From the NCBI GenBank assembly GCA_016840085.1, contig JAEOTA010000027.1, forward strand, positions 1-48,957: a stretch of 48,957 nucleotides of DNA, written 5' to 3'. A program made the translations under genes and the position numbers. Position 1 is the stretch's first letter, and every line of letters starts with the position of its first letter. Positions 3,130 to 25,430 of the stretch are shown here, piece by piece. Below the pieces are notes generated by a model. The model did not search any database, was not told the origin of the DNA, and saw only the letters and a list, made by a program, of their open reading frames with translations. Origin of the DNA: Promethearchaeota archaeon. Lineage in GTDB: Archaea > Asgardarchaeota > Lokiarchaeia > Sigyniarchaeales > SOKP01.

Positions 3130-3618
3130 ATGATCTCTACCGAAGAACAAGAGGAGCTTAAGAAAGCACAAACTGATAAAGAATTAAAACAGGTTTTTAA
3201 AAAAGTTGCTTCAAAAAATCCCGATTCTTACTTCCCCACTAAAGAATTAAGAGAATTAGGATATATAAGAAAGAATTGTGAATCATGTGGAACACTTTTT
3301 TGGACTACATTAAAAGATCGAAAAGTATGCGGAGATCCCACTTGTTCTGGAGGATTTCAAGTTGTAATAAATAATCCCTCTCAAATCAAACTATCATTTA
3401 TAGGAGTATGGGAAAAGATAGTTTAAATTTTGGAACCAAGAGGTTATGTTCCAATTAATAGATATCCATGCGTAGCGAGAGGGGATCCAACATCTGAATT
3501 TACAATTGCTTCAATATCAGCATTTCAACCTTATGTAATTACAGGAGAAGAAGAACCTCCGGCTAAAAAACTAGTAATTCCTCAATTTTATTTAAGATTA
3601 AACCTGTACTATTTTTAA
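3130..3618 (+). pseudogene. alaS: Truncated, diverged 5' copy of alanine--tRNA ligase
   Basis: Aligns to about residues 1-158 of 5214..8180; in-frame TAA at 3424-3426 (EKIV*ILEPRG vs EKIVEILEPRG); VARGDP vs VARWNP; homology ends at PQFYLRL vs PQFCLRF. Confidence 0.9.
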
Positions 3619-3681
3619 AGCATCTGTGTTTCTAATTAAAAATGGTTTTTTTTAAAAGCATCAAATCTTAAATTTATAATA

Positions 3682-4602
3682 ATGGGATTATTTAAAATAA
3701 AAAATATCATAAGTTTTATTTCCATGGGACCATCATTTTTGCAATCAATAGTAAGGAAGGTTCCATTCTATGTGAATTATGATTTAACTTGTCAATGTAA
3801 CTTAAAATGTAAGCATTGTTATTTTTTCTCATCAACAACGGAATTAAAAGATAAAAGAACAGAATTATCCAACGAAGAATGGATTAATCTTTTTAAATAC
3901 CATAGAAAATTAGGAACAAAAATAGCTATTTTAACTGGTGGAGAACCTACTTTAAGAATGGATGTTATAAAAGAAGCGATTAAAATTTTCCCCTCAGTTC
4001 AAGTTGTATCAAATGGAGTTATAAAATTACCTCAATTTAATGGATATAAACAACTAAAATACTGGGTGAGTATAGATGGAACTAAGGAAACTCATGATAA
4101 GATAAGAGGTGCAAAGGTTTTTGATAAAGTCATACAAAATATTCGGGAAAACAGTCCGGTTGTTACATCAACCATTATGACATTAAATTATAAGGAAATT
4201 GAAGATATTGTTAAGATTGCACATGATAATGGTGCTTCTGGATTTGTTTTTTTATTGTATACTGGTTATCCTAACGATCCACTTTTATTAAAAGGAAATA
4301 TCTTAATAAAGACAATTAAAGACATTTTAAAAGTAATGCGTGAATATGGAAATTTTATTTGTTATTCAAAAAAAATGTTAGAAGTATACCTGTCAAAAGA
4401 ATTTGTACCACTTTGCATATTTAAAACCGGTCAAGTAAAAAGTTTCTATCCTGATGGAACACAAAAATTTTGTGTCATGGGAAATTCACCACTATTATGT
4501 GCTAATTGCGGTTGTATAGTACCGATTGCTGCTTACGCCTTATTTAGGAAATTTGATGCTGATACAGTTGAAAAAACGAGAAAATTGTTTGATCTTGCAT
4601 AA
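3682..4602 (+). CDS. Radical SAM protein with C-terminal Cys-rich (SPASM/twitch-like) extension
   Basis: CNLKCKHC CxxxCxxC motif, LTGGEP, SIDG...HDKIRG; C-terminal C...CVMG...CANCGC. Confidence 0.9.
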   Translation: MGLFKIKNIISFISMGPSFLQSIVRKVPFYVNYDLTCQCNLKCKHCYFFSSTTELKDKRTELSNEEWINLFKYHRKLGTKIAILTGGEPTLRMDVIKEAIKIFPSVQVVSNGVIKLPQFNGYKQLKYWVSIDGTKETHDKIRGAKVFDKVIQNIRENSPVVTSTIMTLNYKEIEDIVKIAHDNGASGFVFLLYTGYPNDPLLLKGNILIKTIKDILKVMREYGNFICYSKKMLEVYLSKEFVPLCIFKTGQVKSFYPDGTQKFCVMGNSPLLCANCGCIVPIAAYALFRKFDADTVEKTRKLFDLA

Positions 4603-4776
4603 TAAATAAGCATGGATTTTTCTCTTGTAAATTACGGACTTTTTCTTCCCTTATAGAATGTTTCTTGATTAAAACGAAAATGAAAATATTTCTTAACCTC
4701 AAATTTTCTTAATTAAATTTAATAATAATTTATGAATCAAATTTCAGCTCTGAATGATTAAACTAAATTCGATTCT

Positions 4777-5080
4777 ATGGTTGATTCAAAAAGTTTTTTT
4801 GATAATCTAGCAAAAAAAGCTCTCTAGCGAAAGTTTTGTAATAAAAATTAAGTTTATAGATATATCTCTAAATGAAACTCATTTGAATAGATATAAATTA
4901 ACATCCGGACTTAATTTTTTAGAATGGAATGGATTAATAGCATGCGGTATATACCTAGCTTGTCGAATATTAAAAAAATCAATATCTCAAGTAGAAATAT
5001 CAGAATTTGTTGGAGTAGATGATCACTCTTTAAGTAAAAGATATTCGGAAATAGCTAAAAGCTTATCTATTGAAATATAA
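4777..5080 (+). pseudogene. Remnant of a transcription factor B (TFB) C-terminal cyclin repeat/HTH
   Basis: LTSG...GLIACGIYLACRI...SQVEISEFVGVDDHSLSKRYSEI resembles the TFB second repeat and BRE-binding HTH; upstream DSKSFFDNLAKK lies in another frame (shift at the A-run near 4812-4818). Confidence 0.6.
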
Positions 5081-5213
5081 AATTAATATTCATAAAGTTT
5101 AATTTTCTTTTCTCTTATTTCAATATTCAAATTATAATATTATAATCAAAATAATTTTAGGAAAAGAAACATTAGATTCTTCAATAATTATTAATCGTAA
5201 ACATCGAACTATA

Positions 5214-8180
5214 ATGCTTTCCGATCAACTTATTAATCAACTTAAAGATTGTAGGACAGATAAAGAATTAAAAGTAGCTTTTAAAAAGATCGCATCTGAA
5301 GATCCAGATAAATATTTTCCTACTCAAGAGCTAAAACAACTAGGATATCTAAGGAAACATTGTGAGCACTGTGGAACTTACTTTTGGACAGTTGATAAAG
5401 ACCGAAAAGTATGTGGAGATCCGGTTTGTTCTGGAGGTTTTCAAGTTGTCAATAATAATCCTTCTAAAGTAAAATTGTCCTTTATTGGAGTTTGGGAAAA
5501 AATCGTAGAGATTTTAGAACCTCGAGGTTACCTTCCCATAAAAAGATACCCATGCGTAGCTCGATGGAATCCAACTTCAGAATTTACAATTGCGTCTATT
5601 TCAGCATTTCAGCCTTATGTGATAACTGGAGAAGTAGAACCTCCTGCTAAAAAACTTATAATTCCCCAATTCTGTTTAAGATTTAATGATATTGAAAACG
5701 TAGGAATTACAGGTTCGCATAATACAGGTTTTGTAATGATAGGACAACATCAATTCGTGCCACCTGAAGAATGGAATCAGGGTGAACTTTTTATGGATAT
5801 ACATGATTTTATTCATAAAGGGGTTGGTTTAGCAAAAGAAGAAATAACTATTCATGAAGATTCTTGGGCAGGTGGGGGTTCTTTTGGATGTAGTCTTGAA
5901 TTTTTCAGCAGAGGTGTTGAGTTATTTAATCAAGTCTATACTATGTTTGAACAAACTCCAGAAGGACCAAAAGAATTAAAGCTTAAAGTATTGGATATGG
6001 GTCTTGGACAGGAACGTGTTGCATGGTTTTCTCAAGGAACACCGAATATTTATGAAGCCATTTTTCCTTATGTTTTATCGAAATTAAGAGAAATTGCACA
6101 AATAGAATTAGAATTAGAACTTTATAATAAATTTTCTCAATATTCAGCTTATTTAAATTTTGACGAAGTAGACGATATGGATGAGGCTTGGCAGCGAGTT
6201 GCGAAAGAACTGAAAATAAATGTAAAAGAACTTAGAACTAAAATAATCCCCATGACAGCTCTTTACTCAATTGCTGACCATGCTCGAAGTTTATTATTTG
6301 CGATTAATGATGGAAAATTACCTTCTAATGTTGGTGGGGGGTATAACCTGAGAGTTATTTTTAGACGAGCCTTTAGTTTTATTGACCAGTTTAAATGGGA
6401 TATAGATATAGCTGATGTATGTGCCTGGCATGCTAAAGAATTGAAAGGAATTTTCCCGGAGGTTTCAGACCATCTAGATGAAATTCGAGAAATATTGATG
6501 GTTGAAAGAGAGAAATTTTATACTACTCAGAAAAAAGCAGGAAAAATTTTAGATAAAATCTTGAAAAAGGGAAGTATCTCCACAGAGACTCTAATCGAAT
6601 TATATGATTCTAATGGTATAAGTCCTGATATGGTAAAAGCAGCAGCTAAAAAATATGGCGTAAAAATAGATATTCCAGACGATTTTTATAGGCTAGTTGT
6701 TGAAAGACATGAAAAAATTGAGCAAGTTTATGCTACTGAAAGAGAAATCGAATTGGATTTAGAGGGGATTCCTGAAACAAAATCTTTATATTATTATGAC
6801 TACACAGAAACTTCTAATGAAGCCAAAGTTTTGAAAATCATTGATAGTATGGTTGTAGTAGATAAATCTGTTGCATACCCTACTTCTGGTGGTCAACTGC
6901 ATGATATAGGAAAAATAAATGGTCAAGAGTTTAATGATGTTTTTAAACAAGGAAATCATATTATTCATATACTCGATAGTGAACCTAAATTCAAGGAAGG
7001 AGATATTGTAAAAATAGAAGTGGACAAAGAATGGAGGAAGCAACTATCCCAACATCATACTGCTACTCATATTGTAAATGCTGCTGCTCGAGATGTTTTG
7101 GGTAGTCATATTAACCAGGCTGGTGCAAAAAAAACACTTAAAAGCTCCCATCTTGATATTACACACTATGAACAAATTCCTAAGGATAAATTAATAGAAA
7201 TCGAAAAAAAAGCAAACGAAATAGTAGAGAAAGGTATTGATCTTAATCTTAGTTTCATCCTGCGTTCGGAGGCAGAAAAGAAATATGGTATGTCTATATA
7301 CCAAGGCGGTGCAGTACCTGGGAAATATTTAAGAATTGTTGAGGTCCCTGGAATTGATGTCGAGGCTTGCGGAGGTACACATTTAAATAATACTTTAGAA
7401 ATAGGATACATACACATAACTAAATCACAAAAGATACAAGATGGAATAGTCAGACTTACATTTGTAGCAGGAAAAGCTACAGATAAATTAAAAGAAAAGC
7501 ATAAAAAAATTCTTGAGGAATTAAAAGGTATTTTAAAAGTTGATCGTAAGCAGCTCGTAGAACGTGTGGAAGAATTATTTGAAAAGTGGAAAAATGTCAA
7601 TAAAACACTTAAATCCGGTAAAGTGAATGAGAATGATTTAAAATTGACTTCCTCTAAAACATTTGAGGGTGATGTCTTATCAGAAATTTCTCATTTTTTA
7701 AGTACAAAAAAGGATGACGTGCCAAGTAAAATTCAAAAACTGTATGATGAATGGATAGAAGGAAAAAAAAAGTTATTCAAAATCAAGGATTTGTTTAGCG
7801 ATGAAGCAATTGAAAAGCGGATAAAGAAAGCTCAGAAATATCGTAATGCTAAATTAATTTTCGAATCAACAGAGGGTTTAAACCAAAATGATATAAAAAA
7901 TTTGAGCCAAAACGTCCTTAAGAAAGATCCTAATACTATCATATTTATCTCAAATCAAACTGAAAAAGGTATAATGATTATGGGTATGTCAGGGAGCAAA
8001 TTGTCATTAGATTCAGATATTAATATTGGAGATATTGTATCAACAACTGTTAAACATTATGATGGAAGTGGTGGGGGTTCATCAGATTTTGGCCAAGGTT
8101 TCATAACTAAAAGAGGAGTGACTTCAGCATATGTTTTGAAACGTATAAAAGACATTTATTTTAAAGAACAAGATGAGTAA
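5214..8180 (+). CDS. alaS: Alanine--tRNA ligase (archaeal type)
   Basis: N-terminal CxxC Zn ribbon, IASISAFQP, CLRFND, DMGLGQER, IADHAR, editing motifs HHTATH and EACGGTH, C-terminal DHHA1-like GSGGG. Confidence 0.97.
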   Translation: MLSDQLINQLKDCRTDKELKVAFKKIASEDPDKYFPTQELKQLGYLRKHCEHCGTYFWTVDKDRKVCGDPVCSGGFQVVNNNPSKVKLSFIGVWEKIVEILEPRGYLPIKRYPCVARWNPTSEFTIASISAFQPYVITGEVEPPAKKLIIPQFCLRFNDIENVGITGSHNTGFVMIGQHQFVPPEEWNQGELFMDIHDFIHKGVGLAKEEITIHEDSWAGGGSFGCSLEFFSRGVELFNQVYTMFEQTPEGPKELKLKVLDMGLGQERVAWFSQGTPNIYEAIFPYVLSKLREIAQIELELELYNKFSQYSAYLNFDEVDDMDEAWQRVAKELKINVKELRTKIIPMTALYSIADHARSLLFAINDGKLPSNVGGGYNLRVIFRRAFSFIDQFKWDIDIADVCAWHAKELKGIFPEVSDHLDEIREILMVEREKFYTTQKKAGKILDKILKKGSISTETLIELYDSNGISPDMVKAAAKKYGVKIDIPDDFYRLVVERHEKIEQVYATEREIELDLEGIPETKSLYYYDYTETSNEAKVLKIIDSMVVVDKSVAYPTSGGQLHDIGKINGQEFNDVFKQGNHIIHILDSEPKFKEGDIVKIEVDKEWRKQLSQHHTATHIVNAAARDVLGSHINQAGAKKTLKSSHLDITHYEQIPKDKLIEIEKKANEIVEKGIDLNLSFILRSEAEKKYGMSIYQGGAVPGKYLRIVEVPGIDVEACGGTHLNNTLEIGYIHITKSQKIQDGIVRLTFVAGKATDKLKEKHKKILEELKGILKVDRKQLVERVEELFEKWKNVNKTLKSGKVNENDLKLTSSKTFEGDVLSEISHFLSTKKDDVPSKIQKLYDEWIEGKKKLFKIKDLFSDEAIEKRIKKAQKYRNAKLIFESTEGLNQNDIKNLSQNVLKKDPNTIIFISNQTEKGIMIMGMSGSKLSLDSDINIGDIVSTTVKHYDGSGGGSSDFGQGFITKRGVTSAYVLKRIKDIYFKEQDE

Positions 8181-14548: not shown

Positions 14549-15103
14549 CTAAGTATCAATCAATTTAACCAAACCCCTTTCTTTAGCTATTTTATACTTG
14601 CATTTTGGGCCACACCCTTCTTCAATGGTTGGGTCATGGTCTTCTGAATCAAAATCAATGGGTAGAATAAAATCTTTAGCTATATCAATAATTACTTCCA
14701 TTGATACTGAAGAGATCGAGGGATTATCTCTAAAATGATAATTGATTACATTATCTAATTTTTCGAGTTTAGAGCTTGCGAGTAGTATGCACACATTATG
14801 TGCCCCACTTAGACGAAATGCATTAAGCATAAAAGGACAAAAACGAGCCATATCAAGGATTTCTTCTGGATTCTTTGTTTGAATTTCTACAGTAGCTAAA
14901 AAAAGATCAACTTTCCTAAAATTGATACCTGGCTGGAATTGTAAAACGCCATTTTTTTCAAGTTTTTTAATTCTCATACCGACCGTTGGTTGTGATCTAT
15001 TTATCTTTGTAGCAATTTCAGTATGTGTAAGAGCTGGATTATCCTGAACAAGCGAGATAATTTGTCTATCAATATCATCAAGCTTTAATTTATCTGATAT
15101 CAT
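14549..15103 (-). CDS. Lrp/AsnC family transcriptional regulator
   Basis: LDDIDRQII..THTEIA..RSQPTVGMRIKKLE; FRLSG; C-terminal CGPKC. Confidence 0.92.
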   Translation of the reverse strand: MISDKLKLDDIDRQIISLVQDNPALTHTEIATKINRSQPTVGMRIKKLEKNGVLQFQPGINFRKVDLFLATVEIQTKNPEEILDMARFCPFMLNAFRLSGAHNVCILLASSKLEKLDNVINYHFRDNPSISSVSMEVIIDIAKDFILPIDFDSEDHDPTIEEGCGPKCKYKIAKERGLVKLIDT

Positions 15104-15187
15104 AATGATCCTAAAAAAATGTTTACTTTATATTAAGAAATAGTTTTTCAAATTTATCTATTTATAATTAATTAATCAATTTTATTA

Positions 15188-15856
15188 TTAAAACTCAGAT
15201 AATGGAATTCGTCCATTATAATAAATCATCCTACCATCAAAACTAATTTGGTTGGCAATAATTTTAACACCTTTTTTTCTTGCTTCACTTAATTTTTTTG
15301 AAAATTTTGGATCCGTTTTTGTATTCGGCGCAAAGCTTTCTGCCTTTCGGACAATTAAAAAAAGAATTATACCATTATGATTTATAATTTCCACCACATG
15401 ACGAGTTCCACGCTCAGTCGGAGCATCGGGAAATAATGCTATACCCTCCTTCACCAATGAGACACCTTTTACTTCCAATGGGACATCATCTAGCAGAAAA
15501 TCAATTCTACTATTGCCTATTTTTACTTCTCTCTTAATTTTTTTTACTTCTGAAAATTCTGGTAAATATTCAAATACTTTTTGAGCGATTCTCGAATGAA
15601 GCGCTGTGTCTATTAATATCCATTCTTCGTCTGCCTTAACCGCTTTAATATAATATTTCAACTTACCCTGTGAATATGTGAATAACACTTCAGCACCTTC
15701 AAAAAGCAATTCTTTTAACCTACCAGGATCATGAATATGAGCTGTTTCAATGCGGTCTTTATACTTGATTTCTCCTATAAACCTATTTGGTCTTGCTATA
15801 AATTCACCTTTCATTAAATTAGGGATCTCAAATAAAGGCCATTTTCTTACCGACAT
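15188..15856 (-). CDS. sfsA: DNA/RNA nuclease SfsA
   Basis: RPNRF, HIHDPGRLKELL, SRIDFLL, EVKGVSL, FPDAPTERG. Confidence 0.95.
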   Translation of the reverse strand: MSVRKWPLFEIPNLMKGEFIARPNRFIGEIKYKDRIETAHIHDPGRLKELLFEGAEVLFTYSQGKLKYYIKAVKADEEWILIDTALHSRIAQKVFEYLPEFSEVKKIKREVKIGNSRIDFLLDDVPLEVKGVSLVKEGIALFPDAPTERGTRHVVEIINHNGIILFLIVRKAESFAPNTKTDPKFSKKLSEARKKGVKIIANQISFDGRMIYYNGRIPLSEF

Positions 15857-15974
15857 TTAAAAATTTAATTTCTAAGGTTTTCTATTTAGATTAATTTATC
15901 CTGCTATATTAAAGGATTTTGTTATAATGTATAAACCAAATAGATAAAAACATATCCTTATTTGAGTAATTATA

Positions 15975-16214
15975 ATGAGTGAAGCAAAGAATCGAAGCAA
16001 TATTGAAAGCTATAAATTTCATCATATAGATATAAATAAATGTAGCAAATGTAAGGAATTTTCATGTGAAGATGTATGTTTTAGAGGTATTTATGAAGTT
16101 ATTAATAAAGATTCTACACCTAAATGTATAGTTGTCGAAGATCGTGAAGATCGCTGTGTAAAATGCCACATCTGCACAACTACGTGCAAAGCTAAAGCAA
16201 TAACTATAGATTAA
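15975..16214 (+). CDS. 2x[4Fe-4S] ferredoxin
   Basis: CSKCKEFSCEDVC and CVKCHICTTTC..AI. Confidence 0.85.
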   Translation: MSEAKNRSNIESYKFHHIDINKCSKCKEFSCEDVCFRGIYEVINKDSTPKCIVVEDREDRCVKCHICTTTCKAKAITID

Positions 16215-16271
16215 TATGGTTTAGATAGAACTCTAATTTTAAAAATAGATTTCTAATGAAATTTAAAAAAA

Positions 16272-16784
16272 TTAGAAGTTACATTGTTCACAACAATTAT
16301 TATTTAAAATAATTTGACCATTTTCAAGATTAAGGTTTATAGGCAACACGAAATCATTTGCAACATCAGCAATAACGTCTATGTGAACATTTAAAACATT
16401 TGGATTACTTCTGAAATGATTATTTATAATCTTATCAATATCTTTAAAGCTTAAACCAGCAATTATAACACTGATATTAATATCTCCACTTAACCTGAAA
16501 GCATTAAGCATGAAAGGACATTCTTTAACTATTTTAAAGGCTTCTTGGGGGTTTTTTGTTAGTATTTCGACTCGAGCAAAACAAAGATCTGCTACTTTAA
16601 TATTTATGCCTGCCTGAAATTTCAAAACTCCTAAATTTTCAAGTTTTTTTATCCTCATCCCTACAGTAGGCTGACTTCGATTCACATGTTCTGCAATTTC
16701 AGTATGCGTAAGATTTGGTTCTCTTTGGATTAAATCCATAATTTTACAATCGATATCATCAATTCCTATTTTTTTACTTAACAT
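16272..16784 (-). CDS. Lrp/AsnC family transcriptional regulator
   Basis: IDDIDCKIM..THTEIAEHVNRSQPTVGMRIKKLE; CPFMLNAFRLSG; C-terminal CCEQC. Confidence 0.92.
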   Translation of the reverse strand: MLSKKIGIDDIDCKIMDLIQREPNLTHTEIAEHVNRSQPTVGMRIKKLENLGVLKFQAGINIKVADLCFARVEILTKNPQEAFKIVKECPFMLNAFRLSGDINISVIIAGLSFKDIDKIINNHFRSNPNVLNVHIDVIADVANDFVLPINLNLENGQIILNNNCCEQCNF

Positions 16785-16982: not shown

Positions 16983-17318
16983 ATGAGTGAATTAAGAAAA
17001 TATACTATTGATTTTTTAAGAGTATTGGCTGATCCAACACGATTAGAAATTCTGGATCTTTTAAAGAATGGTGAAAAAAACGCATCAGAAATTCAGAAAA
17101 GTCTTAGTAGATCTCAATCAACAATTTCTAAGCACCTAAATTTGCTTACTGATAATAATCTTATTTATTTTAAGAAAAAAGATAATATAAAATATTATAA
17201 GATAAAAAATCTTGAAATTTTTAATCTAATTTCTGACATAAATTCAATTGTTGCGAAGATTAATAAAGAAAAGTTTAAAGATTTGAGAGATATCGATATT
17301 TACGATACATTATCTTAA
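16983..17318 (+). CDS. ArsR/SmtB family transcriptional regulator
   Basis: LADPTRLEILDLL...SQSTISKHLNLL..NLI..K.D..KYY. Confidence 0.92.
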   Translation: MSELRKYTIDFLRVLADPTRLEILDLLKNGEKNASEIQKSLSRSQSTISKHLNLLTDNNLIYFKKKDNIKYYKIKNLEIFNLISDINSIVAKINKEKFKDLRDIDIYDTLS

Positions 17319-17356: not shown

Positions 17357-17908
17357 ATGATGAAAACTAAAAATAACAATGAAGCTAATAAAGATACGAT
17401 GAAAATTGTATTAATTGGATTGGATAATAGTGGGAAAACTTCAATATTAAAGTGTTTGAAGGGTATTAAGAGGATATCTGCTTTTAATTTTCCAATGCCT
17501 ACGAAAGGTCTTGATGTACAAGATTTTGAAGCTTTAAATTCGAAATATACAATTTGGGATCTTGGCGGCCAAGAAATGTATATTGATGATTATTTAAAAG
17601 ATTTTGAGAAATATATCAAGAGAGCAAGTAAAATTATATACGTAATTGATATTCAAGATGTTAATCGTTATGAAATTGCGCTTGAATATATGAAAAACGT
17701 GATAAATTCAATTGATATTGAAACCTATATTGAATTTTCTATTTTTCTACATAAATTTGATCCAGACTTGGTATTTGATCAAAATTTAAATGAAAAAGTT
17801 ATTGATGATTTTGTTAAAAAAATAAAAGATATAACACCTCCAAAATTTATCAATTCGATTTATAAAACATCGATATTTGCAGTTTTTGAAAAATCAACAA
17901 TTAGCTAA
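17357..17908 (+). CDS. Small GTPase, Rag/Gtr-Arf-like (Asgard type)
   Basis: G1 GLDNSGKTS, G2 PTKG, G3 WDLGGQ, G4 HKFD, G5 TSIF. Confidence 0.93.
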   Translation: MMKTKNNNEANKDTMKIVLIGLDNSGKTSILKCLKGIKRISAFNFPMPTKGLDVQDFEALNSKYTIWDLGGQEMYIDDYLKDFEKYIKRASKIIYVIDIQDVNRYEIALEYMKNVINSIDIETYIEFSIFLHKFDPDLVFDQNLNEKVIDDFVKKIKDITPPKFINSIYKTSIFAVFEKSTIS

Positions 17909-17987: not shown

Positions 17988-20888
17988 ATGTCGAACGAAA
18001 TTAAGCGAACTTTTTCACATAAAATAGCCCTAGAAATATTAGAATTTTCATTCTTTTTTCTGGGATTGTTTTTAACATATTTAACAAGTTTATATAACTA
18101 TATCTTATTTCATACTATTGCTGAGCTATTTAGCATAATAATAGCAGGAGGGGTGTTTTTTGTTGGTTGGAACTCGCGTAAATATATGAAGAGCTCTTTC
18201 TTTTTAATTCTTGGAACATCGTCACTTTTTATTGGCATTTTGGACTTAGTTCACACATTAGTATATCCGGGTATGCAGATTTTTGCAGATTCTGATACGA
18301 ATCTTGCAGCATCTCTTTGGATTGCTGCTCGATATCTTCAAGCAGGCTCACTTTTAATTGCTTCATTTTTAATTAATAAGAATTTAAAAACAGAATATCT
18401 AATTATTATCTATTTCAGTTTAACGACTATTTTAATAATTATTATCTTTAATAATTTATTTCCAGTTTGTTTTATTGATGGAGATGGTTTAACACAATTT
18501 AAAATTATAAGCGAATATATTATTGATTTCATATTATTGGCATCTCTTATGATAATAATTAAAAAAAGAGCTGAATTTGATAAAAAAGTCTTCTTTTTAA
18601 TTATAAGTTCAATTATAGCAACAATGATATCAGAATTAGCATTTACATTTTATCATGAAGCTTATGGGTTCCCTAATTTAATTGGGCATGTCTTTAAAAT
18701 AATATCGTTCTATTTTTTGTACAAAGGTATTATTCAAATTGGTATAGAAAAACCATTTGATCTTTTATTAAGAAAAGTAAAAAGAAGTGAATTAGAACTA
18801 AAAAATATTATTACCCATTCTAATGCGATTATTATGATGCTAGATGAAAATGGAAAGTTTACTTTAGTAAATAAAAAAGCTGCATCTCTATTGGGTGGAA
18901 ATCCTGAAAGTTTTATCGGAAAATCAATTAAACACGTTTTTCCCCAAGACTTAGGTGCGGAATACTTAAACAGTACTCTTGAATTAATTAAAACTGGAAT
19001 AAATCGTTCATATCAGCGAACATTTGATCTACCAACTGGTCAGAAGACATATTGGATAACTGAACAACCAATAAAAGATGTTGATGGGAAAAATCCATCT
19101 CTCCTAAGTGTTGCTACAGACATTTCTGAGAAAATAAAATCAGATAAATTAATCCAAGAAGCTGAAGAACGCTATCATACAATTTTTGAACAATCTCCTG
19201 ATGGTATACTAGTCACAGATCTTGAAACTTTAAGAACAGTCGAATTTAATGATGTAGCATGTAAATTATTAGATTATACCCATGAAGAATTTGAAAAATT
19301 ACAAGTAAATGATTATTATGTTATGGAAACCTCTTCTGAGACAAGACGCTATTTTGAAAAGGTATTAAGAGATGGAAGTGATGATTTTGAGTCGAAATTT
19401 CGTACTAAAAGCGGAGAAATTAAGGATATTTATATAAGAGCGAAATTGATATCTTTATCTGGAAAAAAATATTTTCAATTAATATTTCGAGATATAACAG
19501 AGCAAAAGAAAATTGAAGAATTAAAAACGAGATTAGCCTCTATTGTAGAATCATCCGAGGATGCAATTATAGGTAAAAAATTAGATGGAACAATTATCAG
19601 CTGGAATAAAGCTGCTGAGAAAATTTATTATTATTCTGCTGAAGAAATGTTGGGAAAATCAATCAAGCTTTTGTCACCTCCTAACTATGGTAGTGAGATC
19701 ATTGAAATATTAACAAGAATTAAAAGTGGAGAAAAACTTGAAGGTTTTGAAACTGAAAGAATAAGGAAAGATGGATCAAAAGTTCATGTCTCTCTTACAG
19801 TTTCAGCAATAAAAGATGCAAATAATAAAATTATTGGAGCATCCACAATCGCTCGAGATATTACCGAGAAAAAGAAAGCTGAAGAAGAAATTCGAAGAAT
19901 GTCAAAGTTCCCTTCTGAAAACCCTAATCCAGTGCTCAGAGTAAATAATGAAAAAGTAATCTACATCAATAAAATAGGAGAATCTTTATTTAATATCAGT
20001 AATGGAAGTCCAAATCCAAAAGTGCTAGAAGATTCAGTCGAAGATGCTTTTACTAATAAAAAGATCCAAGAACTTGAAATAAAATTAGATAATCGGTTTT
20101 ATACTCTTGTCTTGACTCCTGTAGAAAATGAGAATTATGTTAATATTTATGGTATGGATATAACAGAGCGTAAAAAAGCTGAAGAAAGATTATCACAACT
20201 AATTTCTACAGTTTCACATGAATTAAGAACTCCGATTACTGTTCTACTAATGTCAATAGAATATCTTACTAAACATAAAAAGTTTCTCGAAGAAGATTTA
20301 GAAGCGAAGTTAATGGACGGTATCTCAAGAAATATCCAGTTGCTAAATCAATTATCAGAGGATATTTTATTAATTTCAAGGATGGACGAGAATCGACTAG
20401 AATTTGAATGGAAAGATTATAAACCTAAAGAGATTATCAAAGAAATCTTATATCTTATGGAACCTATGGGTAAGGAAAAGAAGATAAGTTTTCAAGTTGA
20501 GGTAGATGAAAATATTCACTTAAGAGGAGATACAAGGAGAATAGATCAAGTTTTTCGAATTATTATCAATAATGCTATTAAATATTCAAGAGAAAACTCA
20601 AAAGTGGAAATTCGAGCTATAAATAATTATAAAGGGAAATATAATGTAAATGAAAATCCAGGAGTTCTCTTTGAATTTAAAGATTACGGGCGTGGAATCC
20701 CAGAGGACGAATTACCCAAAATTTTTGAACGATTTTTTCGTTCTAGTAATGTAAATGAAATTCCTGGAACTGGTCTAGGATTAGCGATCGCTAAAGATTT
20801 AATCGAGGCTCATAATGGGAGTATTTATATAGAAAGTGAATTAGAGAAAGGTACTACCTTTTATTTATATTTACCCAAAATTGAATAA
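17988..20888 (+). CDS. Membrane sensor histidine kinase: MASE3 + about four PAS + HisKA + HATPase_c
   Basis: NYILFHTIAELFSI MASE3-type multi-TM N-terminus; PAS repeats ending DISE/DITE; H-box SHELRTP, N-box NNAIKYS, DYGRGI, GTGLGL. Confidence 0.93.
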   Translation: MSNEIKRTFSHKIALEILEFSFFFLGLFLTYLTSLYNYILFHTIAELFSIIIAGGVFFVGWNSRKYMKSSFFLILGTSSLFIGILDLVHTLVYPGMQIFADSDTNLAASLWIAARYLQAGSLLIASFLINKNLKTEYLIIIYFSLTTILIIIIFNNLFPVCFIDGDGLTQFKIISEYIIDFILLASLMIIIKKRAEFDKKVFFLIISSIIATMISELAFTFYHEAYGFPNLIGHVFKIISFYFLYKGIIQIGIEKPFDLLLRKVKRSELELKNIITHSNAIIMMLDENGKFTLVNKKAASLLGGNPESFIGKSIKHVFPQDLGAEYLNSTLELIKTGINRSYQRTFDLPTGQKTYWITEQPIKDVDGKNPSLLSVATDISEKIKSDKLIQEAEERYHTIFEQSPDGILVTDLETLRTVEFNDVACKLLDYTHEEFEKLQVNDYYVMETSSETRRYFEKVLRDGSDDFESKFRTKSGEIKDIYIRAKLISLSGKKYFQLIFRDITEQKKIEELKTRLASIVESSEDAIIGKKLDGTIISWNKAAEKIYYYSAEEMLGKSIKLLSPPNYGSEIIEILTRIKSGEKLEGFETERIRKDGSKVHVSLTVSAIKDANNKIIGASTIARDITEKKKAEEEIRRMSKFPSENPNPVLRVNNEKVIYINKIGESLFNISNGSPNPKVLEDSVEDAFTNKKIQELEIKLDNRFYTLVLTPVENENYVNIYGMDITERKKAEERLSQLISTVSHELRTPITVLLMSIEYLTKHKKFLEEDLEAKLMDGISRNIQLLNQLSEDILLISRMDENRLEFEWKDYKPKEIIKEILYLMEPMGKEKKISFQVEVDENIHLRGDTRRIDQVFRIIINNAIKYSRENSKVEIRAINNYKGKYNVNENPGVLFEFKDYGRGIPEDELPKIFERFFRSSNVNEIPGTGLGLAIAKDLIEAHNGSIYIESELEKGTTFYLYLPKIE

Positions 20889-20953: not shown

Positions 20954-21865
20954 ATGTCAGATGCAAAACCATTACTTATGGTTGTTGATGATAATGAAGA
21001 TATTTTGTTTAATTTAAAAATATTGCTTAAAGAAAAAGGTTATAATATAAAAACTGCTACTAACGGCAAAAAAGCGATTAAAATTCTTAACACTCTTAAT
21101 GCAATTCCTGATGTGATAATTAGTGATATTATGATGCCAGGAATGGATGGTTACGATTTTTTTTCAGCTGTTTCTAATAATCCCCAATGGAATCGAATTC
21201 CATTTTTATTTCTGACTGCAAAATCTACCCCCGAAGATATTCGATTAGGTAAAATGCTGGGGGTTGATGACTACATCACAAAACCCTTTAAGAAAGAAGA
21301 TTTAATTGCATCAATTTCAGGAAAAATTGCTCGAAATCAAAAATTAAATCTTATTGATAAGGAAATTAAACAATTATTATCCTCTTTACATATTAGAATG
21401 CAACCTTCTATTCCTGATAAAGATCAACCAAAATTGTATTTACTGTTAGTGTATTGGGATGACGTTATAGGTCCAGTCTTAAAGAGATGTTTTCCCTCCG
21501 ATAAAAATTTTCCTATTTCAATAAGTGAAATAGGCAAGCAGTTATTCCATGCAGCAACTTCAATTTATGGGCATGATAAAATCACAAGAGCTCAAGGCTT
21601 TTTATTGAATATCGAAAACATTAATAAAAAAGGGTATGTATTTTTTGATTCATATCCCGCTGAAAATGAAAGATATGGAGAAAAACAATACATGTTATCT
21701 GCAATCTCTTCAAATTTAACTTATTTTGATTCTCTTAAAATTAGGCAAGTATTGAAAGAGATCTCAGAAAAAATTAAAGATAAAAAAGATTGGGAAATAC
21801 AGGAATACTGGGAAAAATTATTAGATATATTATCCAAAGACTCATTTTTATTACATACTCAATAA
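20954..21865 (+). CDS. Response regulator: REC domain fused to a C-terminal longin/uDENN-like domain
   Basis: REC: VVDD, phosphoacceptor D58 (SDIMMPGMDG), T88, K110 (ITKPF). Output domain starts LYLLLVYWDDVIGPVL, resembling the uDENN/longin beta1-beta2 motif. Confidence 0.88.
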   Translation: MSDAKPLLMVVDDNEDILFNLKILLKEKGYNIKTATNGKKAIKILNTLNAIPDVIISDIMMPGMDGYDFFSAVSNNPQWNRIPFLFLTAKSTPEDIRLGKMLGVDDYITKPFKKEDLIASISGKIARNQKLNLIDKEIKQLLSSLHIRMQPSIPDKDQPKLYLLLVYWDDVIGPVLKRCFPSDKNFPISISEIGKQLFHAATSIYGHDKITRAQGFLLNIENINKKGYVFFDSYPAENERYGEKQYMLSAISSNLTYFDSLKIRQVLKEISEKIKDKKDWEIQEYWEKLLDILSKDSFLLHTQ

Positions 21866-22050
21866 GACTCTGTATCTTTTAACAAAACTATAGAATTTTA
21901 TAAATTAAAAATGAATCTGCTTTTTAGTCTAGTAAATAAGTAAGAAAAATTTATTTCGTTAATAATCTATAAAAAGAACTTTTAAATCAGATATTTTGGA
22001 TGATGTTATTAAGAAATCATACTATAAATTTTGCTTATAAGGTGAAAAAT

Positions 22051-22365
22051 ATGTCTGAAGTAAAAGAAGAAGAAAAGTTTGTAAGATCCCCCGAAGTATG
22101 TTCTTGGGCTGATGACGAAGAAAATGTTTATAAAATTGAAATTCAACTGCCTGGAGTAGAGAAAGATTCGATTAAACTAAAAATGCATGACGATAGTTTT
22201 TTCATTAAAGGAGAAACCGAAGATACTATCTATATTGGTTCCTACGGTGTTTGTTGCCCGATAAAACCAGAAGAAGCAAAAGCAGTTTATAAAAATGGGC
22301 TACTGAAGATAGAAGTACCATTTAAAGAGCCCGAGTTTCATAGTATAGAGATAAACGTTGAATAA
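22051..22365 (+). CDS. Hsp20/alpha-crystallin family protein
   Basis: IEIQLPGVEKDSI and AVYKNGLLKIEVP; ATG 5 nt after AAGGTGA (ORF track start 22000). Confidence 0.9.
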   Translation: MSEVKEEEKFVRSPEVCSWADDEENVYKIEIQLPGVEKDSIKLKMHDDSFFIKGETEDTIYIGSYGVCCPIKPEEAKAVYKNGLLKIEVPFKEPEFHSIEINVE

Positions 22366-23087: not shown

Positions 23088-24017
23088 TCAATATTCTATA
23101 TTCATTTCCTTGACATAATCAAAAGCTGAATATGCTGCTATAACTCCTTCAGAAACTCCTGTTATTGCTTGCTTAAAAGGGGCATCAGCAACATCTCCAG
23201 CTGCAAAAATACCAGGAATGCTTGTTTCTGATTTACGATTAATTATAATTTCACCTTTATCATTTGTTTCAACACCAATACGTTTTGCTAAATCAGAATT
23301 AGGATCTGACCCAATTTCGATGAATACTCCGTCTACTTCAAATTCTTGTCCATTGTCAAAAATAACAGAGTTCACTGTATTATCACCCTTGATTTCGACA
23401 ATATTAGTATTATTAATTATTTCTATTTTGTCATTTTCATAAACCCTTTGCTTATTTATTGGTTCTGCTCGTATTTCTTTACCACGATAAATTATATAAA
23501 CCTTTTGAGTGTTTTGAGCTAAAAATAATGCTTCTTTAGCAGCAGAATCACTCCCACCAATGACACAAACAACCTTATCTTTATAAAATGGACCATCACA
23601 GGTAGCACAATAAGACACACCTCTACCAGCAAACTCTTCTTCACCAGAAACACCCAATTTTCTCCTTTCGGAACCTGTTGCTATACAAATAGAATAAGCT
23701 TTAAAATTTTGAAAAAAGGAATGTAATTCAAAGTGATCATCAATTTTATCAATAGTCCGTATCTCATCTGAAATGTATGGGATATTAAGTGAGTCCATAT
23801 GATCCTTAAACATATCCATTAAACCTTGACCACTTATTGATGTAATCGCAGGATAGTTCTCAACAATATGAGTCGTGGCAATTAAACCTCCAAATGTTTT
23901 ACCAATAACTAACACATCCATAGCAAATCTGGCTGCATAAATTGCACAGCCGATTGCAGTAGGTCCCCCTCCTAAAACGATAAGGTCAAAAGTTTTTTCT
24001 AAATCAATACCTTCCAT
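23088..24017 (-). CDS. trxB: Thioredoxin reductase
   Basis: GGGP FAD motif, ATGS, GRGVSYCATCDG, GIFAAGD; ATG 1 nt after the upstream gene's TGA. Confidence 0.95.
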   Translation of the reverse strand: MEGIDLEKTFDLIVLGGGPTAIGCAIYAARFAMDVLVIGKTFGGLIATTHIVENYPAITSISGQGLMDMFKDHMDSLNIPYISDEIRTIDKIDDHFELHSFFQNFKAYSICIATGSERRKLGVSGEEEFAGRGVSYCATCDGPFYKDKVVCVIGGSDSAAKEALFLAQNTQKVYIIYRGKEIRAEPINKQRVYENDKIEIINNTNIVEIKGDNTVNSVIFDNGQEFEVDGVFIEIGSDPNSDLAKRIGVETNDKGEIIINRKSETSIPGIFAAGDVADAPFKQAITGVSEGVIAAYSAFDYVKEMNIEY

Positions 24018-24018
24018 A

Positions 24019-24702
24019 TCAATATTGAACACGATTACTTCCCCCAATCAAGGCTCTTAATATCTCATTTGGTCCAACCATTCCAACTAAGGTCTTTTGA
24101 TCGTTTATAATAGTATAGGGAACGCCTGCAGCATCATAGTATCGAGCAATATCGGGATTTGCTAGAATATCAATAATTACTGTTCTAACTTTTCCCCTAG
24201 ATGCAATAGCAAAATCATTTGCTATCATACAAACTGTAGGACAGTAAGGGCAGGTTTCGGTTATCATGACCTTTATTGTGGAAGGTGGGATCCTGTCTAA
24301 GTTTTGCTTTATCGTTGCTTCATAATAATTGGGCGCTCCAGCAAAAGCAAATATTGCTTGGATGAAGGGTTGAATCTCACCGCCTTGTGGAGCAGCTAAA
24401 TATCGTATAAATTCTCTTCCTTGGTCATCTATGAATAAGAGGGTAGGTACTCTCGTAATATCATACTTTTTAGCCAATTCGGGGTTATCTTCAATACACA
24501 ATTCTTCGATTGTCAGCATTCTGTTTGAATTCTCTTCATAGATTCTTAATAATGCCATAAATTGATTACAATCCATGCACTCTCTTATCTGGCTTCCATT
24601 TGGTTGTTTTTCTTTACACGTGATCACCTTTAACTTAACAGGTTTTTTTAATTTAGCCATTTCTTTTTTGATTATTTCCTTATATCTATTTTCTTGAGAC
24701 AC
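24019..24702 (-). CDS. Protein disulfide oxidoreductase (PDO / AhpF-NTD-like, two Trx folds)
   Basis: N-terminal CMDC, C-terminal CPYC, RVP and GVP cis-Pro motifs. Confidence 0.88.
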   Translation of the reverse strand: MSQENRYKEIIKKEMAKLKKPVKLKVITCKEKQPNGSQIRECMDCNQFMALLRIYEENSNRMLTIEELCIEDNPELAKKYDITRVPTLLFIDDQGREFIRYLAAPQGGEIQPFIQAIFAFAGAPNYYEATIKQNLDRIPPSTIKVMITETCPYCPTVCMIANDFAIASRGKVRTVIIDILANPDIARYYDAAGVPYTIINDQKTLVGMVGPNEILRALIGGSNRVQY

Positions 24703-24725
24703 AGTCTTACATCACCCCATAATAA

Positions 24726-25430
24726 TTATGCATACATTCCTCCAAAATCTCGTTTTCCTTTCGTAAGTTTATCCAGCAAATCCTGAGAGGTAAACATTCC
24801 ATATATATGATCTTTCTCATTTATAACCGTGTAAGGAACTCCCTGAACTTGGTATTTCATTCCAATGTCTGGGTTTAAATTAACATCTATTACTTCTGCT
24901 GAAATCTTTCCTTTAGAAACTATTGCAAATAACGTTAAGACTGGCACGGTCTGTGGGCAGTAAGGACACGTAGGAGTTATAAAGATTTTCATTTTCGCCT
25001 TTTCTATCTTTTTGAGATGAGTAATGATTTGATCCGCATAATAAGGTCTTACTCCCGAAAAATATTGTATACTATTAAGAAAGGGTACAAATTCAGATCC
25101 AGTTGGATGTGCCAAATATCGAATGATTTCTCGACCATTTTCATCAACAAATAGTATAGCTGGAATTTTAGCAACATTAAATTTTTTAGCTTCTTCTTCA
25201 TTTTCTTCAGTAGAAATTTCTTCAATTATTAATTTTCCTTTGGATAAATCTTCTAGAGTTTTTAGTAACTCATAAGTTCCTTCACAAGCCATACATTTTC
25301 TTAATTTTGTCCCATCTACTTGTGTTTTAAAATCAGTGAATAGTTTAAGTATAACTTTCTCTTTTAATTTGCTCATTTCTCTTTTTATATTATCCATTTC
25401 ATTTTGTGAAAATAGCATAAAATCACCCAT
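24726..25430 (-). CDS. Protein disulfide oxidoreductase (PDO / AhpF-NTD-like), paralogue
   Basis: CMAC and TPTCPYCP; KIP and VQGVP. Confidence 0.88.
   Translation of the reverse strand: MGDFMLFSQNEMDNIKREMSKLKEKVILKLFTDFKTQVDGTKLRKCMACEGTYELLKTLEDLSKGKLIIEEISTEENEEEAKKFNVAKIPAILFVDENGREIIRYLAHPTGSEFVPFLNSIQYFSGVRPYYADQIITHLKKIEKAKMKIFITPTCPYCPQTVPVLTLFAIVSKGKISAEVIDVNLNPDIGMKYQVQGVPYTVINEKDHIYGMFTSQDLLDKLTKGKRDFGGMYA

Follow-up and report, generated by a model that had tools for sequence, protein, structure and literature searches.

A receiver-longin response regulator encoded beside a Rag-like small GTPase in a Promethearchaeota archaeon: a candidate longin GTPase-activating protein under two-component control

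The stretch of DNA analysed here (48,957 nucleotides, positions 1 to 48,957 of contig JAEOTA010000027.1 in assembly GCA_016840085.1; hereafter the window) comes from a Promethearchaeota archaeon and encodes, in the open reading frame (ORF) at 20954..21865, a response regulator in which a CheY-type receiver is joined by a long linker helix to a 135-residue C-terminal output domain. The output domain has the longin fold, carries a WDxxxGP motif placed and spaced as in C9orf72, and has a conserved arginine, R240, in the loop between strands 4 and 5. The gene of this receiver-longin protein (REC-longin) is the fourth of four co-oriented genes, which encode an ArsR-family regulator, a Rag-like small GTPase, a membrane histidine kinase and the REC-longin itself. 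We put at about 55% the probability that the protein is a phosphorylation-controlled GTPase-activating protein (GAP) of the FLCN/NPRL2/SMCR8/C9orf72 type which acts on the neighbouring Rag-like GTPase and uses R240 as its catalytic residue; at the least, it is most likely a regulator of that GTPase. The cassette and the parts of the REC-longin are as follows.

16983..17318, + strand: ArsR-family winged-helix regulator, gene 1 of the cassette (Pfam HTH_5, E 3.2e-12)
17357..17908, + strand: Rag-like small GTPase of 183 residues, G domain only, candidate substrate or partner (Pfam Arf, E 3.8e-21; Gtr1_RagA, E 9e-17)
17988..20888, + strand: membrane sensor histidine kinase, MASE3, three PAS, HisKA and HATPase_c (Pfam MASE3, E 2.2e-82; PAS_9, E 3.9e-40; HisKA, E 5.8e-11; HATPase_c, E 3.6e-26)
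20954..21865, + strand: REC-longin response regulator, full ORF of 303 residues plus stop (ORF list)
20978..21316, + strand: CheY-like receiver, residues 9-121 (Pfam PF00072, E 1.5e-26, 93 bits against a cut-off of 30.2)
21293..21388, + strand: long helix, residues 114-145, the last receiver helix running on into the linker (full-length AlphaFold2 (AF2) model)
21434..21838, + strand: longin domain, residues 161-295 (AF2 domain model, VIA-align and Foldseek)
21455..21475, + strand: WDxxxGP motif, W168-D169-D-V-I-G173-P174, in the strand 1-strand 2 hairpin (conservation, C9orf72 spacing and VIA alignment offset)
21671..21673, + strand: codon AGA of R240, candidate arginine finger, in the strand 4-strand 5 loop (conservation in orthologues and clusters)

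Searches with the full-length profile and model were dominated by receiver domains, and the C-terminal domain was therefore folded and searched alone. The AF2 model of residues 150-303, built on 109 homologues, has a predicted local distance difference test score (pLDDT) of 91.5 and a predicted template modelling score (pTM) of 0.86. Its strands (161-169, 173-180, 214-220, 225-235 and 243-252) and helices (190-205, 257-275 and 282-301, all in protein numbering) are predicted to follow one another as strand-strand-helix-strand-strand-strand-helix-helix, which is the longin order with a five-stranded sheet. An earlier reading of the same DNA, made from its letters without database searches (the sequence-only reading), had guessed these secondary-structure elements and the longin order; the model matches both and has no non-longin fold. 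The coordinates and peptide strings of that reading are likewise exact, residue 161 starting at 21434 and the stretch being LYLLLVYWDDVIGPVLKRCFP. The protein stops a few residues after the last longin helix, with no C-terminal DENN or NPRL2-specific domain.

Compared with the Protein Data Bank (PDB) by Foldseek, the domain model yielded only three matches below E 1e-3, all of them to chains of 363-370 residues from GATOR1 entries; for one of these, 9o5d_D, the residue range fits NPRL2, a chain identity taken from the range, as only the entry is named. The next matches were FLCN (8dhb_J), 8yqg, chains of the yeast Npr2 complex, the Lst4 longin, DENND1 and C9orf72-SMCR8. VIA-align scores, which stem from one search independent of Foldseek and from a re-ranking of the matches of Foldseek, were as follows.

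Lst4: Z 11.6-12.2
FLCN: Z 11.1-12.1 (12.1, 11.4 and 11.1)
8yqg, Lokiarchaeota longin dimer: Z 11.5
C9orf72: Z 11.3
NPRL chains: Z 9.9-10.6
SMCR8: Z 10.3
Other longins: Z about 8-9.5, with the TRAPP-core chain 7b6d_E at 10.5
Roadblock proteins: Z 7-8

The longins of FLCN, Lst4, C9orf72, SMCR8, NPRL, TRAPP, VAMP7, Sec22, Ykt6 and Mon1-Ccz1 were matched at Z 8-12 over 100-140 aligned residues, and 62 chains had a Z of at least 8, nearly all of them longins among the matches listed. The modelled structure leaves no reasonable doubt that the output domain is a longin; the model's preference for GAP-type longins over others is consistent but modest in Z. A separate lead came from the ESM Atlas, where the neighbours include Asgard clusters, one of them with Pfam NPR2 in 19% of its members, and eukaryotic clusters annotated as C9orf72-like/NPR2, DENND11 and LST7/Folliculin. 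Searches of residues 150-303 against Pfam and NCBIfam brought up no meaningful match, TANGO2 and DUF6014 alone appearing at E about 0.06-0.1. A search with Pfam NPR2 left the organism's whole genome without a match at E up to 1, and 151 Asgard genomes without one at E up to 1e-5; this says little, as the controls were silent too, but it took away a possible bridge through Asgard NPR2 members. An assignment to the roadblock fold (MglB-like) was rejected: the roadblock order is helix-strand-strand-helix-strand-strand-strand without the two C-terminal helices, the model opens with two strands and closes with two helices, and roadblock chains cover model residues 9-130 only.

W168-D169 and G173-P174 occupy the same place in the strand 1-strand 2 hairpin, and have the same spacing (five residues from W-D to G-P), as W33-D34 and G38-P39 of C9orf72. 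The VIA alignment to C9orf72 (7o2w_A) starts with model residue 7 at chain residue 21, an offset of 14, so that W168 falls on W33, and G173-P174 on G38-P39; in the SMCR8 alignment (6v4u_B), which starts with model residue 10 at residue 54, G173-P174 fall on G68-P69. The offsets for FLCN (11 = 2) and NPRL2 (10 = 6) put the same pair on what would be G15-P16 of human FLCN and G20-P21 of human NPRL2. NPRL2 R78 and FLCN R164 presumably occupy the loop between strands 4 and 5 as well, FLCN R164 as A-R-G, which resembles the R-G-G usual in the family.

Regarding the 36 orthologues (59-76% identity), W168, D170, G173, P174 and R240 are invariant. Across 109 representatives of clusters formed at 50% identity, the tryptophan at 168 recurs in 105, the glycine at 173 in 103 (of 108 counted) and the proline at 174 in 101, or 93-96% for these three; D169 is retained in 81 (of 108 counted), with Asn in 13; an arginine stands in the strand 4-strand 5 loop of 90, usually as R-G-G or R-G, and is retained in relatives fused to Ras-, Arf- and Rag-type GTPases. 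The C9orf72-like YWDxxxGP motif claimed in the sequence-only reading thus has the spacing of C9orf72 and is too strongly conserved across the 109 clusters to be due to chance. That reading had also located R240 (codon AGA at 21671-21673, inside ENERYG) in the loop that joins strands 4 and 5, some 80 residues from the start of the domain, and had asked for its conservation; codon and peptide are correct, the AF2 domain model agrees with the position, and the arginine is present in 36 of 36 orthologues. The literature values behind it (C9orf72 W33-D34 and G38-P39, SMCR8 G68-P69 and R147, FLCN R164, and NPRL2 as the arginine-bearing subunit of GATOR1) hold as well. The GP motif lies just before strand 2, beside the arginine finger, is found in FLCN, NPRL2, SMCR8 (G68-P69) and C9orf72 (G38-P39, together with W33-D34), and is absent from non-GAP longins (Traffic 2025, PMC12290439). 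According to the literature, C9orf72 W33/D34 and SMCR8 R147 are needed for ARF1 GAP activity, and FLCN R164 has been observed at the RagC nucleotide.

The closest solved chains to the GTPase of the window are the Lokiarchaeota RagA-like 8yl2 (6.7e-25) and 8zla/9m28 (3.8e-23), followed by Arf/Arl. Its motifs are GLDNSGKT, DLGGQ with the catalytic glutamine present, a Rag-like HKFD, and TSI; the chain stops soon after the final G motif and lacks the C-terminal roadblock domain carried by other Rag-like paralogues of related genomes. The usual client of an arginine-finger GAP is a GTPase with an intact glutamine and no built-in arginine. Read from the sequence, the glutamine of DLGGQ would, as expected, fit a finger supplied in trans.

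Gene order was compared in 20 loci of other Asgard genomes, of about 18 kb each, and in 4 further paralogous loci. The whole cassette of ArsR, GTPase, kinase and REC-longin is kept in 10 of the 20 loci, in two genera, and in 10 related loci the kinase lies between GTPase and REC-longin; one locus has ArsR, GTPase and REC-longin without the kinase, two have a GTPase directly downstream of the REC-longin, and three have one within a few kb. In the paralogous loci a GTPase adjoins the REC-longin in 4 of 4. Of the 20 loci, 11 carry the ArsR gene upstream of that for the GTPase, as do 2 of the 4 paralogous ones. Although each of 13 genomes of the same family holds 50-70 GTPase candidates, in 10 of them the window GTPase finds its best match in the whole genome less than 4 kb from the REC-longin gene. 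These partner GTPases form a distinct group of 183-191 residues consisting of the G domain only, whereas the other Rag-like paralogues have 300-500 residues. The pairing of GTPase and REC-longin outlasts rearrangement and duplication; the flanking ferredoxin and Hsp20 genes are kept within the genus only.

Relatives of the domain are also fused to GTPases. Among the cluster representatives, it stands behind a Ras-like GTPase in P0135 and behind an Arf-like GTPase in P0149. A distant copy in the organism's own genome (G000, contig C77, about 3497-6865; L082:553-3393 and beyond) belongs to an ORF of 1123 residues with an Arf-like GTPase (147-307), the longin (317-431), two PAS domains and a weak GAF match (E 0.015); this longin retains W-D...G and I-R-G-G, and several related genomes contain ORFs of 1126-1148 residues that show this longin match as well. 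A further ORF of 489 residues in G000 (contig C24, 161101-162570; L103:1210-2679) combines an N-terminal longin with a Rag-like GTPase (Gtr1_RagA, 1.2e-24), has G-P and A-R-G motifs, and gives a weak Pfam Folliculin match (E 0.0087) over that region. It lies where at least three Rag-like GTPase genes are clustered in 12 kb (neighbours at C24:150448-150930 and 155914-156399).

The receiver residues D12, D13, D58 and K110 are invariant in the 36 orthologues, T88 is conserved in at least 90% of them, and G123, K124 and R127 of the linker are again invariant. The best match of the receiver is PDB 12aw chain A, a 'hybrid two-component system protein' of 279 residues (E 4.6e-27), of which the receiver only is aligned. 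A coiled-coil reading of the linker helix was set aside, the heptad signal being weak.

A word-indexed search with residues 150-303 returned 225 proteins, nearly all of about 300 residues, and the homologues with a named source all stem from Asgard metagenome-assembled genomes (Promethearchaeota/Lokiarchaeota, Hodarchaeota, Thorarchaeota and Odinarchaeota). HMMER, run with the domain alone against 1.84 billion cluster representatives, found 151 clusters, 109 of which were aligned. The domain is present in 50 of 201 sampled Asgard genomes, including 34 of 40 in the family of the window and 10 of 10 in one other family. The own genome has a single REC-longin gene and one distant Arf-fused paralogue. 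The output domain is unnamed in genome records because public annotation names the receiver only ('response regulator', 'PleD family two-component system response regulator', 'CheY-like chemotaxis protein'). In related proteins the domain is also joined to kinase-receiver, PAS-HATPase and RsbRD_N modules; it stands behind an RsbRD_N sensor domain in P0123 and behind DUF1638 in P0143. P0163, P0200 and P0260 (406-425 residues) are REC-longins with about 130 extra C-terminal residues, and P0260 has a weak Pfam Folliculin match (E 0.0032) over the strand 4-strand 5 region.

As to the surroundings of the cassette, a gene for a small heat-shock protein (22000..22365) lies downstream of the REC-longin. 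Upstream, in 14549..16784, two Lrp/AsnC-like regulator ORFs on the - strand (14549..15103 and 16272..16784), with similar helix-turn-helix regions and Cys-rich tails, enclose an SfsA-like ORF and a small ferredoxin of the 2x[4Fe-4S] type (15975..16214), which adjoins the cassette within the genus only. In 23088..25430, a thioredoxin-reductase-like gene (23088..24047, - strand) is followed by two paralogous ORFs of about 230 residues (24019..24702 and 24726..25430, - strand), each with two C-P-Y-C-P motifs and protein-disulfide-oxidoreductase-like.

If the protein is a GAP under two-component control, the kinase encoded at 17988..20888 is likely its cognate kinase; this MASE3-PAS kinase would sense a membrane or PAS-borne signal and phosphorylate D58 of the receiver. 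Phosphorylation would alter the oligomeric state or the orientation of the longin, most simply by formation or re-registering of a homodimer through receiver and linker helix, and a homodimer is suggested by the single REC-longin gene of the own genome. The longin pair might then cup the Rag-like GTPase encoded in the same cassette and hold it with the WD/GP hairpin; R240 would enter the nucleotide pocket, complete the active site and speed GTP hydrolysis. Control would in this scheme run from kinase to GTPase.

Several points weigh against a GAP. Most longin platforms are guanine nucleotide exchange factors (GEFs) or scaffolds and not GAPs, and the margin in Z over non-GAP longins is small, the TRAPP-core chain 7b6d_E reaching 10.5. 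Pfam NPR2 (PF06218), Folliculin (PF11704) and C9orf72-like (PF15019) do not match the window protein at E up to 1, own-genome profile searches with PF06218 and PF11704 did not match the REC-longin gene, and a profile of the domain found no solved longin among all PDB sequences, only a chance match at E 0.57. The relationship to GAP-type longins rests on fold and motifs because these Pfam family models do not match. The sequence-only reading had proposed an archaeal longin GAP related to GATOR1/FLCN/SMCR8; of this, the longin, its nearest structures (FLCN, Lst4/FNIP, C9orf72, SMCR8 and NPRL2/3) and the combination of GP, WD and loop arginine stand; its GAP activity, and the receiver-driven homodimer that in this proposal possibly replaces the eukaryotic heterodimer, are predictions. 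The loop arginine is missing in 19 of the 109 representatives, mostly the most divergent members, and the equivalence of R240 to known arginine fingers would be one of loop topology only. No GTPase lies within about 8 kb in 4 of the 20 loci, and the related genomes are non-independent samples. The full-length AF2 model is moderate (pLDDT 74.7, pTM 0.51) and leaves the orientation of receiver and longin not fixed; the heptad pattern of the linker has at best 7 of 11 core positions hydrophobic.

These points bear differently on the alternatives. That the longin binds the neighbouring GTPase without being a GAP, as an exchange platform, as an effector of the GTP state which feeds back on the phosphorelay, or as a platform for dimerisation in trans, with R240 in a structural or interface role, is a serious but rather unlikely reading: longin and roadblock dimers in the literature are mainly GEFs and scaffolds, the short GTPase without the roadblock tail of its 300-500-residue paralogues would suit such a role, and the GEF-type longins DENND1, Mon1-Ccz1 and TRAPP also reach Z 9-10.5. 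Against this, GP with a conserved loop arginine is the reported signature of GAP-type and not of GEF-type longins (Traffic 2025, PMC12290439), and the arginine is invariant in orthologues and persists in the GTPase fusions. We regard as improbable a longin with no relation to the GTPase, whose partner would be a membrane, a SNARE-like or coat-like protein or ArsR, the gene order then reflecting co-regulation or shared ancestry. The four loci with no GTPase nearby would accord with it, Asgard genomes are rich in GTPases, so that some proximity is expected, and in strain MK-D1 the GTPase genes are generally not in operons with longin genes (Tran et al.); yet the neighbour is in 10 of the 13 genomes one specific orthologue, identified as the genome-wide best match, the pairing survives rearrangements and paralogue duplications, and some relatives carry the domain and a Ras-, Arf- or Rag-type GTPase in a single polypeptide. 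It appears very improbable that the resemblance is due to a chance motif on some generic alpha/beta domain unrelated to longin GAPs. The identity of 7-16% to solved longins and the lack of any Pfam model matching the domain would allow it; the high-confidence model with exact longin topology, the 62 chains at Z of at least 8 (almost all longins among those listed), the motif conservation over 109 clusters, the independent ESM Atlas leads and the weak Pfam Folliculin matches of relatives over the arginine region speak for a longin GAP relative instead.

Longins of this kind are known in Asgard archaea. Liu et al. (bioRxiv 10.1101/2020.10.19.343400; Nature 2021) describe NPRL2-like longins fused to two-component domains and propose that growth control in Asgard archaea is still centred on two-component systems with 'eukaryotic' regulators. 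These fusions are of the same kind, an NPRL2-type longin with two-component domains, joined here to a receiver; the parts of the text compared, which do not include Figure 5c, contain no WDxxxGP, no loop arginine and no cassette with a Rag-like GTPase of the G domain only. Asgard 'FLCN/SMCR8-type' longins with a GP motif and a conserved arginine have been reported as possible GAPs for Asgard ArfR or Rag GTPases (Traffic 2025, PMC12290439). GP before strand 2 and a conserved arginine in an Asgard longin are common to both; the text of that paper has no occurrence of receiver or response-regulator fusions and no neighbourhood pairing, whereas here the C9orf72-type WD stands in the same chain. 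The kind of protein and the logic of its motifs are thus already published, in these two papers. A literature search on Asgard longins with a response regulator, receiver or histidine kinase found no paper describing the cassette. What may be new is the conservation of the pairing with a kinase and one particular minimal Rag-like GTPase, the occurrence of the C9orf72-type WD and the finger arginine in one chain, and the support from GTPase fusions.

With the eukaryotic complexes GATOR1 (NPRL2-NPRL3), FLCN-FNIP and C9orf72-SMCR8 the REC-longin shares the longin fold, at the best structural scores, the GP, the loop arginine and the WD of C9orf72, as well as a Rag- or Arf-like GTPase as the likely client. 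In contrast to them it lacks a DENN or NPRL2 C-terminal domain, partners like DEPDC5, WDR41 or Ragulator, and detectable profile similarity; it carries WD and arginine in one chain, which eukaryotes split between two subunits, and its control would be a prokaryotic phosphorelay. It is filed here as a GAP-type longin by fold and motif and not as an orthologue of NPRL2 or FLCN, because profile membership and C-terminal domains fail. The MglA-MglB and RomR system of Myxococcus likewise unites a prokaryotic GTPase, a dimeric regulator of the roadblock/longin superfamily and a receiver-domain protein in one circuit; unlike the REC-longin, MglB has the roadblock fold (Z 7.7-7.9 here) and no arginine finger, and the receiver of RomR is on a separate protein, whereas receiver and longin form one polypeptide here. 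The Lokiarchaeota Roadblock-Longin protein 8yqg, a longin dimer, aligns over 134 residues with a root-mean-square deviation of 3.4 at Z 11.5, but consists of roadblock and longin without a receiver and has 8% identity to the domain.

One locus (L104; G186:C300:2500-10860) has two REC-longin paralogues (ORFs 2157-2885 and 6739-7455) behind ArsR and GTPase. The first has no loop arginine and G-A in place of G-P; the second, 4 kb on, has both features. By analogy this pair, a single case, may resemble eukaryotic pairs of a catalytic and a non-catalytic subunit such as NPRL2/NPRL3. A tentative extension, which we consider doubtful on balance, is that the family represents the pre-duplication state of the eukaryotic longin GAPs: a homodimeric GAP with WD/GP and an arginine finger in each chain, switched by the receiver and paired in an operon with a minimal Rag-like GTPase. 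If so, a two-component system would drive a Rag-type switch directly, and loci like L104, with a second copy that lacks the arginine, would be a first step towards the eukaryotic heterodimers.

In eukaryotes, nutrient signals reach TORC1 by way of Rag GTPases together with GATOR1 and FLCN, which are longin GAPs, and where these came from is an open question. As most of them lie outside operons, Asgard GTPases have been hard to pair with regulators (Tran et al.). The cassette provides a defined candidate pair, a Rag-like GTPase of 183 residues and a REC-longin of 303 residues, together with a likely kinase, and its parts are small, soluble (the kinase excepted), expressible and assayable; as a system in which to test how Rag-GAP signalling arose, it is tractable and of moderate interest. 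GAP activity dependent on R240, if it exists, would mean that a bacterial-style phosphorelay can drive a eukaryote-style GTPase switch, and the pair would offer a direct test for longin GAP activity in Asgard archaea.

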